64,000 nt of DNA from a virus (lineage: Duplodnaviria > Heunggongvirae > Uroviricota > Caudoviricetes), in the IMG/VR virus record IMGVR_UViG_3300029705_000054, positions 1,687-65,686 of that record, one strand, 5' to 3'. Under the pieces are notes generated by a model that was not told the origin of the DNA, ran no database searches, and saw nothing but the letters and a program-made list of their open reading frames with translations. Made by a program: the position numbers and the translations under genes. Below, one piece after another: positions 36,689 through 37,789 of the stretch; position 1 is the first letter of the stretch; every line of letters begins with the position of its first letter.

Positions 36689-37789
36689 ATGGCAACATTA
36701 ATGAAAAGCACAAACAATGGTTGGAAACTTCTTGACAATTCAGGCAATGTAGTTTTGACTATTGCTAACAACACAGCGGAATTTAGTACTAATATAACAC
36801 TTCCAAATTCTATTTCTTGTAAAGATTCGTGGGGATCTACGACATCTTCCAAAAACTTGGAAACAATTTTAAACAATATTATTGATAATATAGATTATGT
36901 TGAAGGAATGACTTGTCTCAAAGAAGATACCGATATCCTTATGATGGATGGAAGCTCTAAAAAAATTTGCGATGTTCGTTATGGAGACTATGTTAAAAGT
37001 TGGGACCCACTTACCAAAACCTATATCAATGCAAAATGCTATGGAGCTTTTGTTACTGCTCAAACAAGAGGATGGGAAACTTTCGTTTTTGATAACGGTT
37101 CTTTGTTACAGATTCGTCAAAGCCATACAATTTTTTCTGCAAAGAAAAATGAAGTAGTAGGAAGTAAAATATGGAAAGTAGGAGATAAAGGCTGTGGTCT
37201 TGACGGAGCTGAAATAACTTTAGTAAAAAAAGCAACTATAGCAGACTCAATCAATCGTAAGAGCTATATTCTTATAGTTGAAAATAATTTATATTTTGCT
37301 AACGGTGTTTTAGTAGGACATTTTCCCAACGATAAAATAAATGCTTATTATCGTTGGACAAAAGCATTTTCTGAACTAACTCCTGAAGAATTAGAATTTT
37401 TTAAAGCTACGGGAGAAATTTATGATAAAGGTCGTCGTCTTGAAATTGATGAAAAAGATTATTTAACCGCTGCCGCACCTACTTTTGGACAAATTAATAT
37501 TGCAAAGCAAAAAATAGATAATTATAAAAAAAGTTTAGCCAAAAAAGACTATAAGACAATAAAATATATCCAAGGAGATCTTTCTGAGGAAGAATTTTAT
37601 ACTCATGCAACAGAAGCTAAAGCTCTTCGTGAAAAAATTGCTGAACAAGAAGATATAATATCTATTTACAATAAGCATTTAGAAGAGCTAAGAGAACAAT
37701 ATAATATTAAACCAAATAAAATGGAAGATATTTATAAAGAAGCATTTACAATAGATATCGAGCATACAAGAAATAATGGTTACAATTAA
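36689..37789 (+). CDS. Hint (hedgehog/intein-like, bacterial-intein-like) domain protein with a C-terminal coiled coil
   Basis: CLKEDTDILMMDGSSKKICDVRYGDYV...IVENNLYFANGVLVGH matches the Hint-domain N- and C-terminal signatures. Confidence 0.5.
   Translation: MATLMKSTNNGWKLLDNSGNVVLTIANNTAEFSTNITLPNSISCKDSWGSTTSSKNLETILNNIIDNIDYVEGMTCLKEDTDILMMDGSSKKICDVRYGDYVKSWDPLTKTYINAKCYGAFVTAQTRGWETFVFDNGSLLQIRQSHTIFSAKKNEVVGSKIWKVGDKGCGLDGAEITLVKKATIADSINRKSYILIVENNLYFANGVLVGHFPNDKINAYYRWTKAFSELTPEELEFFKATGEIYDKGRRLEIDEKDYLTAAAPTFGQINIAKQKIDNYKKSLAKKDYKTIKYIQGDLSEEEFYTHATEAKALREKIAEQEDIISIYNKHLEELREQYNIKPNKMEDIYKEAFTIDIEHTRNNGYN

Follow-up and report, generated by a model that had tools for sequence, protein, structure and literature searches.

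The closest described relatives of the domain considered here are the bacterial intein-like (BIL) domains, two of which serve for structural comparison, the C. thermocellum BIL (PDB 2LWY) and BIL2 of the Tetrahymena BUBL1 locus (PDB 6Y75/6TMM). BIL domains are without the nucleophile that follows an intein at the +1 position; type A members keep a C-terminal His-Asn pair, and type B members have no similarity in block G and catalyse splice-site cleavage that is uncoupled from splicing (PMC4031507). In BIL2, H69 is named by the authors of the structure as a key catalytic residue, and a lysine forms an isopeptide bond to the C-terminus of the N-terminal ubiquitin-like flank (PMC8616854). Two further Hint-type systems are relevant, namely the Hedgehog C-terminal autoprocessing domain (PDB 1AT0) and the pre-toxin HINT domain (PF07591) of polymorphic toxins, which acts as a releasing peptidase (Zhang et al. 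2012, PMC3482391). What, then, might a domain of this kind be doing in a phage protein encoded beside putative receptor-binding genes? The question is posed by a 64,000-nucleotide stretch of DNA (the window) from a virus of the Caudoviricetes, positions 1,687 to 65,686 of IMG/VR record IMGVR_UViG_3300029705_000054, in which a gene at 36689-37789 encodes a 366-residue protein made up of a short N-terminal part, a Hint domain and a C-terminal helical domain. Judged by its sequence, this protein belongs, as one of the shorter members, to a large family of tail-fibre-like phage proteins that has not been catalogued, and in which the paired Hint and helical domains may serve as a self-removing maturation device.

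The fold of the domain is genuinely that of the Hint/BIL type, and within the BIL/Hint class it is a divergent member. The 366-residue protein on its own scores weakly: against the Pfam Hint profile PF01079, the search that the initial annotation had proposed, a match is indeed found (21 bits, E 2.8e-4, profile positions 8-116 of 213), yet it falls short of the 29.7-bit cut-off, and there are weak matches to Hom_end_hint and to an intein-containing NCBIfam model. The Pfam Hint-type matches listed for its relatives are likewise under their cut-offs. Among 40 aligned members, Hom_end_hint is matched by 35, Hint by 28, Hint_2 by 12, Vint by 7 and PT-HINT by 5. The identification is strong because these relatives can be added. 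A profile built from the family alignment has 8w20_A as its best match in the PDB (E 2e-15), ahead of BIL2 from the Tetrahymena BUBL1 locus (7e-14) and the BIL of C. thermocellum (6e-4), and the AlphaFold2 model calculated on the 40-sequence alignment (mean predicted local distance difference test score, pLDDT, 90.5; predicted template-modelling score, pTM, 0.76) retrieves as its top structures in Foldseek BIL2 (E 8.5e-12) and the C. thermocellum BIL (TM-score 0.86), followed by mini-inteins and Hedgehog. Identity to the two BILs is about 20%. The hallmarks of the Hint superfamily, a beta-fold of some 130-150 residues, a Cys as first residue and a block-B His, are all present, and with 136 residues the domain has the size of a mini-intein without an endonuclease insert. 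The initial annotation had placed a Hint module after some 75 residues, and this layout holds: a 75-residue part is followed by the 136-residue Hint domain from C76 to H211, with its motifs at residues 76-102 and 201-211, and then by a 155-residue helical domain. On the DNA these parts lie as follows.

36689..37789, + strand: gene of the Hint-module protein, 366 aa, 41.7 kDa, with an ATG start, a TAA stop and no in-frame TAG.
36673..36679, + strand: Shine-Dalgarno sequence AAAGGAG, 9 nt 5' of the ATG, read from the sequence.
36689..36913, + strand: N-terminal part, residues 1-75, 8.1 kDa, predicted to be released by a cut after Thr75.
36914..37321, + strand: Hint/bacterial-intein-like domain, C76-H211, 136 aa, from profile and fold matches.
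36914..36916, + strand: codon of Cys76, the predicted nucleophile at Hint position 1, Cys in 123 of 124 relatives.
37124..37126, + strand: codon of His146, the block-B catalytic His, placed by alignment to 8w20 and BIL2, His in 119 of 124 relatives.
37319..37321, + strand: codon of His211, at the variable position of the intein terminal Asn, placed through the BIL2 alignment.
37322..37786, + strand: C-terminal helical domain, residues 212-366, 155 aa, from the AlphaFold2 model, conserved in relatives.
37547..37594, + strand: best-conserved motif of the helical domain, DYKTIKYIQGDLSEEE, at the hairpin tip, with D287, Y288, K292, G296 and E302.

The relatives surfaced only in an exhaustive phmmer search of 1.84 billion cluster representatives, which gave 683 matching representatives at E<=1e-3, 178 at <=1e-10 and 40 at <=1e-30; a word-indexed protein search returned a single relative, at 54%. 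Conservation is counted throughout over the 124 modules that are complete. In this family the Hint and helical domains together form a module of about 295 residues (approximately residues 74-366 of the present protein) at the C-terminal end of proteins that range from 300 to more than 3000 residues; complete members have an N-terminal part of 10-2546 residues (median 320), a Hint domain of 135-148 residues and a C-domain of about 158 residues, so that the 366-residue protein, with 75 residues before its module, stands at the short end of the range. The Hint domain had initially been described as embedded in its protein, a description that has to be replaced by that of a fixed C-terminal module, Hint plus helical domain, borne on N-terminal parts that are unrelated between members. 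Overall identity within the family is about 25%, and in about 40% of members a coiled-coil-like ...R(V/I)..LE... segment directly precedes the Cys. Several of the N-terminal parts carry fibre-type Pfam matches to PTR (phage tail repeat), Mtd_N and Collagen, and weakly to the adenovirus shaft, together with PHROG matches to several tail-fibre, minor-tail and tail-collar families, and the genes have as neighbours Peptidase_M23, XkdV_N, a Mtd_N/YadA_head protein and very large uncharacterised proteins. Assignment to the tail-fibre functional class is made for the family by domains and neighbours, and for the 366-residue protein by operon context only.

None of the phmmer relatives joins an N-terminal part to the helical domain without an intervening Hint domain. 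Variations on the architecture do occur: P0131 (625 aa) has a second Hint after its Hint and helical domains, P0135 (3186 aa) ends in two tandem Hints that terminate in a classical His-Asn, and the fibre-like P0107 and P0147 end directly after the Hint, with no helical domain. P0120, which seemed to start within the Hint and so to represent a naturally split domain, is a gene-calling artefact, its contig holding one frame broken by TAG codons and one TGA; P0110, P0155 and P0156 also appear to begin inside the Hint. The 366-residue protein itself (P0001) is present in identical form on 18 metagenomic contigs, the longest being a 135-kb Joint Genome Institute contig. Its N-terminal 75 residues, which are conserved in the four closest relatives only and have no family match, are modelled as six short beta-strands with a helix at 57-68 (pLDDT 53-84); their homology to the pre-Hint region of the long members is not established, the alignments being weak and of low complexity. 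Among genome collections, the whole module was found at one of the 64 loci retrieved, a contig (L012) of a Bacteroidales metagenome-assembled genome in which the last ~295 codons of a 1273-residue open reading frame (3067-6888) encode it, the other loci being ordinary Hint or intein matches; among 185,579 species-representative genomes it is the only carrier that the two search patterns could pick up. The 366-residue protein and P0092 gave no tblastn match to 50,697 GenBank phage records. A relation to the TAG-recoding phAss-1 group was considered and set aside, as PMC10607447 mentions no Hint or intein and none of the cultured-phage matches given by the queries run pointed to that group. No PHROG covers the module, the commonest PHROG matches reaching only 4 of the 40 members, no Pfam family or cultured-phage record describes the architecture of fibre, Hint and helical domain, and no paper in the literature searched connects Hint domains with tail fibres in such an arrangement. 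At least 124 cluster representatives combine a variable fibre with a Hint domain and a helical domain that is conserved yet unclassified, a combination that is new in being absent from the libraries and papers searched.

The residues of the Hint domain bear directly on the chemistry to be expected of it. In the alignments C76 occupies position 1 of the Hom_end_hint profile and matches C1 of BIL2, H146 pairs with the TTHH His of 8w20 (the TxxH motif) and with H69 of BIL2, and H211 falls on N143 of BIL2, the intein terminal-Asn position. The first of these is Cys in 123 and the second His in 119 of the 124 complete modules. The remaining positions are far from uniform, with Tyr (64), Phe (22) or Thr (6) at the TxxH Thr position, where the 366-residue protein has Arg, and His (64), Ser (11), Gln (10), Asn (9) and also Met at the terminal-Asn position; the +1 position has no preference for Cys, Ser or Thr (His, Lys, Ser, Asn, Trp and others occur, and F212 in the present case), and the block-F Asp position is variable. 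The final strand, YFANG(I/V)L, resembles block G of inteins and BILs and aligns with FFANGVL of BIL2, the terminal His-Asn being absent. Of the Cys and His that the initial annotation expected on catalytic positions, the Cys is indeed at position 1, and the His it named, at the end of LYFANGVLVGH, is H211 on the terminal-Asn position; the conserved catalytic His is H146, to which it made no reference.

The terminal Asn, the +1 Cys, Ser or Thr and the insertion in a conserved host protein that mark class 1 inteins are all missing, and although the +1 nucleophile is absent, as in type A BILs, the lack of His-Asn means that the domain is not of type A. With neither a terminal Asn nor a +1 nucleophile, splicing and C-terminal cleavage by the Hint domain are unlikely, and what is expected is an N-to-S acyl shift at Thr75-Cys76, a thioester and N-terminal cleavage only. 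In this the domain would resemble those BILs that carry out cleavage uncoupled from splicing. The earlier suggestion that it could auto-cleave or auto-ligate is narrowed in the same way, since ligation would call for the terminal Asn and +1 residue and only the N-terminal reaction is predicted. The phage Hint differs from the two BILs in having no type A C-terminal His-Asn, in the variability of its Asn position and in the replacement of the TxxH Thr by Tyr, Phe or Arg, and differs also in setting, as it precedes a conserved 155-residue helical domain and ends fibre-like proteins, whereas BILs occur in secreted bacterial proteins or a ubiquitin-like locus. From Hedgehog it is separated by a helical domain unlike the sterol-recognition region, by the PF01079 alignment, which extends over the Hint half only and is sub-threshold, and by the lack of a Gly-Cys-Phe junction; no homologous sterol- or adduct-recognition region follows the Hint. 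With the pre-toxin HINT and 8W20_A it shares a location near the C-terminus of long filamentous proteins, yet the arrangement is the reverse of that in polymorphic toxins, for in the phage family conservation lies C-terminal to the Hint and variability N-terminal to it, and a variable C-terminal toxin with a downstream immunity gene is not found.

The partner domain, too, is modelled with high confidence. On their own, residues 212-366 reach a pLDDT of 92 and fold into a long hairpin of two antiparallel helices, 256-294 and 300-337, flanked by further helices, and the conserved residues cluster round the tip of this hairpin: D287 (95%), Y288 (90%), K292 (98%), G296 (85%) and R314 (94%), along with L283 and E302. 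No significant match was found in the PDB by sequence profile or by fold, nor any in BFVD, and scans of isolated C-domains (10 and 26) against Pfam and PHROGs gave no consistent match and no toxin family. Two identities were tried and rejected. The motif L..DYK..K..G.LSEEEW...R..I was presumed to resemble tail-fibre assembly proteins, which was not borne out, the hhalign comparison with lambda Tfa giving a probability of 0.08%, and the lead was dropped; a SHOCT identity, with one Pfam match among the 40 members, weak BFVD matches and no recurrence, is unsupported. In one protein, P0157 (182 aa, from a 1356-nt ENA contig), a TIR_2 domain is joined directly to the hairpin part of the helical domain, with its DYKTIK motif, and there is no Hint; this is a single example on a very short contig and may be an assembly chimera. 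Taken at face value, the fusion marks the hairpin as an independent unit and, since TIR domains are generally oligomeric, gives a weak hint that the hairpin has a role in oligomerisation.

The genomic context of the gene adds to this picture, as it is the last of three genes lying between a promoter-like site and a terminator-like hairpin, an operon spanning 33451-37789.

33258..33287, + strand: terminator-like hairpin of the preceding vault-protein-like gene, the upstream boundary of the operon, with a 13-bp stem, 6 G-C pairs and a T-rich tail.
33289..33317, + strand: promoter-like site TTGACT-17-TATAAT, the candidate operon promoter, matching the consensus at 11 of 12 positions, from a scan only.
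33451..33771, + strand: 106-codon gene of a Mtd_N-like fibre N-terminal protein, by translation, with an in-frame TAG at 33478-33480.
33768..36605, + strand: 945-codon gene of a BspA-type leucine-rich repeat (LRR) protein, putatively receptor-binding (Pfam LRR_5, 3e-63), with TAG at 35142 and 35919, ending TGA TAA TAA.
37797..37820, + strand: terminator-like hairpin at the 3' end of the operon, 8 nt past the stop, a 10-bp stem with 5 G-C pairs followed by TTTTGATTTTATT.

On another contig, L006, the first of these genes is called as a 106-residue protein with a faint Mtd_N match, and the DNA of the LRR gene is identical and called as one 944-residue protein. The separate "tail fibre" frames that had been listed upstream are accordingly a single 945-codon LRR frame interrupted by two TAG codons. 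The LRR and Hint genes are not fused, given the TGA TAA TAA at the end of the former and the lack of a slippery sequence; a frameshift or readthrough fusion is ruled out by that triple stop, the lack of a slippery site and the Shine-Dalgarno sequence of the Hint gene itself. The C-terminal two-thirds of the LRR protein consist of repeat units with a G-M-T-W-x-(E/D)-(W/F) motif, and the two TAG codons stand at equivalent positions of the repeats (...ENTKT(V/I)N(I/M)(D/G)S-TAG-N...LNGIDNLTSNINSI), which suggests the duplication of a TAG-containing unit.

Domain identity, architecture, pattern of conservation, and the fibre-like nature and gene context of the relatives are established, and on this footing a mechanism can be proposed. 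That the Hint-helical module is a self-removing maturation device of fibre-like proteins is a reading with roughly even chances of being correct. The precursor would assemble first, helped by the helical domain, which would gather chains or keep the precursor competent for assembly before being discarded. After folding, Cys76, aided by His146, would attack the Thr75-Cys76 peptide bond to give a thioester, and resolution of the thioester, presumably by water, would part the 75-residue, 8.1-kDa N-terminal fibre part from the 33.5-kDa Hint-helical module. Maturation of a component that interacts with the host had been one of the roles initially suggested, and, with the operon of putative receptor-binding genes and the tail-fibre-like relatives, it appears the best reading of the locus. 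The nearest parallel in logic is Peptidase S74, the intramolecular chaperone auto-processing domain of endosialidases, tail spikes and fibres reportedly described by Schwarzer and colleagues in 2007 (J Biol Chem 282:2821, as cited in PMC7824862). Both are portable C-terminal modules on unrelated fibres or spikes, often following a coiled coil or stalk, and, as with S74, self-removal once assembly is complete is predicted for the Hint module. The analogy is functional only, S74 being a Ser-Lys dyad protease and the Hint module a Cys thioester domain of unrelated fold, and no S74 (PF13884) match was found in the 366-residue protein or in the families listed for the 40 members.

Several observations sit uneasily with self-removal after assembly. 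In place of the TxxH Thr there is Arg here and Tyr or Phe in most relatives, and conservation is lacking at the block-F Asp position; catalysis may be slow or differently assisted. At the hairpin tip the polar residues D287, Y288, K292 and R314 are near-invariant, which suggests a binding or catalytic site rather than simple oligomerisation, and since the monomer model packs its helices with confidence, there is no need to invoke a coiled coil between chains. No similarity links the helical domain to known fibre chaperones, whether lambda Tfa or S74. Finally, the 75-residue mature part is four times smaller than the module to be discarded, odd proportions for a chaperone, and it may be that in short members the function resides in the module itself. 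Could the module, then, be retained as the distal or proximal end of the fibre, as a knob, a dimerisation or trimerisation device or a docking element, with its Cys and His structural or with cleavage set off only by host contact, reducing conditions or a similar trigger? The module does constitute most of the protein in short members such as this one, the helical domain is strongly conserved and confidently folded, and P0107, P0147 and P0131 testify to a flexible use of the domains; yet degenerate, non-catalytic Hint domains usually lose the catalytic Cys and His, and where overall identity is about 25%, retention of Cys1 in 99% and block-B His in 96% of modules is the mark of a functioning first step, such that this reading is quite improbable.

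The same conserved tip raises a different prospect, that the Thr75-Cys76 thioester is resolved by a specific nucleophile which the helical domain recruits, in the manner of Hedgehog or BUBL, leaving the new C-terminus of the fibre part covalently linked to a small molecule, to a group on the host surface or to another virion protein such as the LRR protein of the same operon. Among solved structures the nearest is BIL2 of the Tetrahymena BUBL locus, the cluster of D287, Y288, K292, E302 and R314 looks more like a site than a scaffold, and the Hint gene shares an operon with an adhesin-like gene; set against this, the occurrence of the same module on very different fibres fits generic removal better than specific conjugation. 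Transfer of this kind is unlikely, if still worth entertaining, and the particular version in which the thioester acts as a warhead, with the helical domain positioning the nucleophile and the fibre C-terminus becoming ligated to a virion-protein lysine or a host-surface group, is decidedly improbable. Least credible, to the point of being very hard to sustain, is a true intein that splices, or a pre-toxin HINT that releases a C-terminal effector. A few members do have weak Pfam matches to intein Hint models or to PT-HINT (5 of 40), and a free-standing HNH homing-endonuclease gene lies just downstream, but that gene is unlinked to the Hint family at other loci, and in the Hint domain the terminal Asn is absent and F212 takes the place of a +1 Cys, Ser or Thr. 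Nor is the Hint an insertion in a conserved host protein, for the N-terminal parts are unrelated and in no relative seen do they adjoin the helical domain directly; the C-terminal domain is conserved rather than polymorphic, with no toxin-family match, and no immunity-like gene is conserved downstream, where the genes differ between loci. Self-removal of the module remains the preferred reading.

The locus had initially been placed in a structural region of the genome, a description that suits the host-recognition-like three-gene operon and not the wider neighbourhood, which is largely concerned with DNA metabolism and transcription. The rest of the window encodes, for instance, topoisomerase II subunits, a NAD-dependent DNA ligase, RNase H, a sigma-70 factor, an RNA ligase and a DenV-like pyrimidine-dimer glycosylase, along with a YomU-type (SPbeta) tail-tube protein at 42183-42983. 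The RNA ligase gene (40665-42101) has its closest cultured relatives in large Bacillus siphophages such as Kirov and PBC2 (~47% identity), and these relatives and the YomU-type tail tube point to a putative Firmicutes host. Upstream of the operon, 30765-33245 (+) encodes an 826-residue protein with a major-vault-protein shoulder domain (PF11978, 6e-26) and a vault repeat, which is unusual in a phage; its GenBank phage matches are three uncultured huge phages only, of 462-735 kb, at ~44% identity. The HNH/NUMOD4 homing-endonuclease gene lies at 37892-38518 (+), directly past the terminator of the Hint gene, and has 208 codons, one in-frame TAG at 38093 and a promoter-like site of its own at 37820-37848.

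The phage appears to read TAG as a sense codon. In-frame TAG codons occur at 33478, 35142, 35919 and 38093 within the Mtd_N-like, LRR and HNH genes, with sensible protein across them, and the same DNA is called elsewhere as single proteins of 944 (LRR) and 208 (HNH) residues; in-frame TAGs are likewise present on L077, the contig of one relative. At 47108-47182 lies a tRNA gene with anticodon CTA, and the U1, mismatched 1:72 pair and G73 of this tRNA presumably resemble those of tRNA-Gln. With TAG as a sense codon, lists of open reading frames made with the standard code split genes in the window. ARAGORN reports a further 17 tRNA genes at 19999-28496 (one unassigned, with a four-base anticodon), in a GC-richer stretch nearly devoid of long open reading frames, and an odd tRNA with a four-base anticodon at 6423-6494.

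Tail fibres and spikes set the host range of phages, and their correct folding is a practical bottleneck in phage engineering. The folding aid that comes closest in its self-removing logic is the serine-lysine module of S74, and if the proposed mechanism is true, the Hint-helical module would be a second, unrelated and widespread solution to the same problem, one that uses intein-type chemistry. The annotation of such proteins would be corrected, with the last ~295 residues no longer counted as receptor-binding tip, and protein engineers would have at hand naturally occurring mini-Hint domains that cleave on their N-terminal side, together with a new partner domain. Were the thioester instead passed on to a partner, the outcome would be enzyme-free covalent conjugation in the virion, and were it to act as a warhead, it would mean covalent assembly or covalent adsorption, a chemistry undescribed for phage host-recognition proteins in the sources searched. 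If it is self-removal that operates, the module would account for the maturation of hundreds of uncultured phage fibres, at least partly from gut metagenomes.

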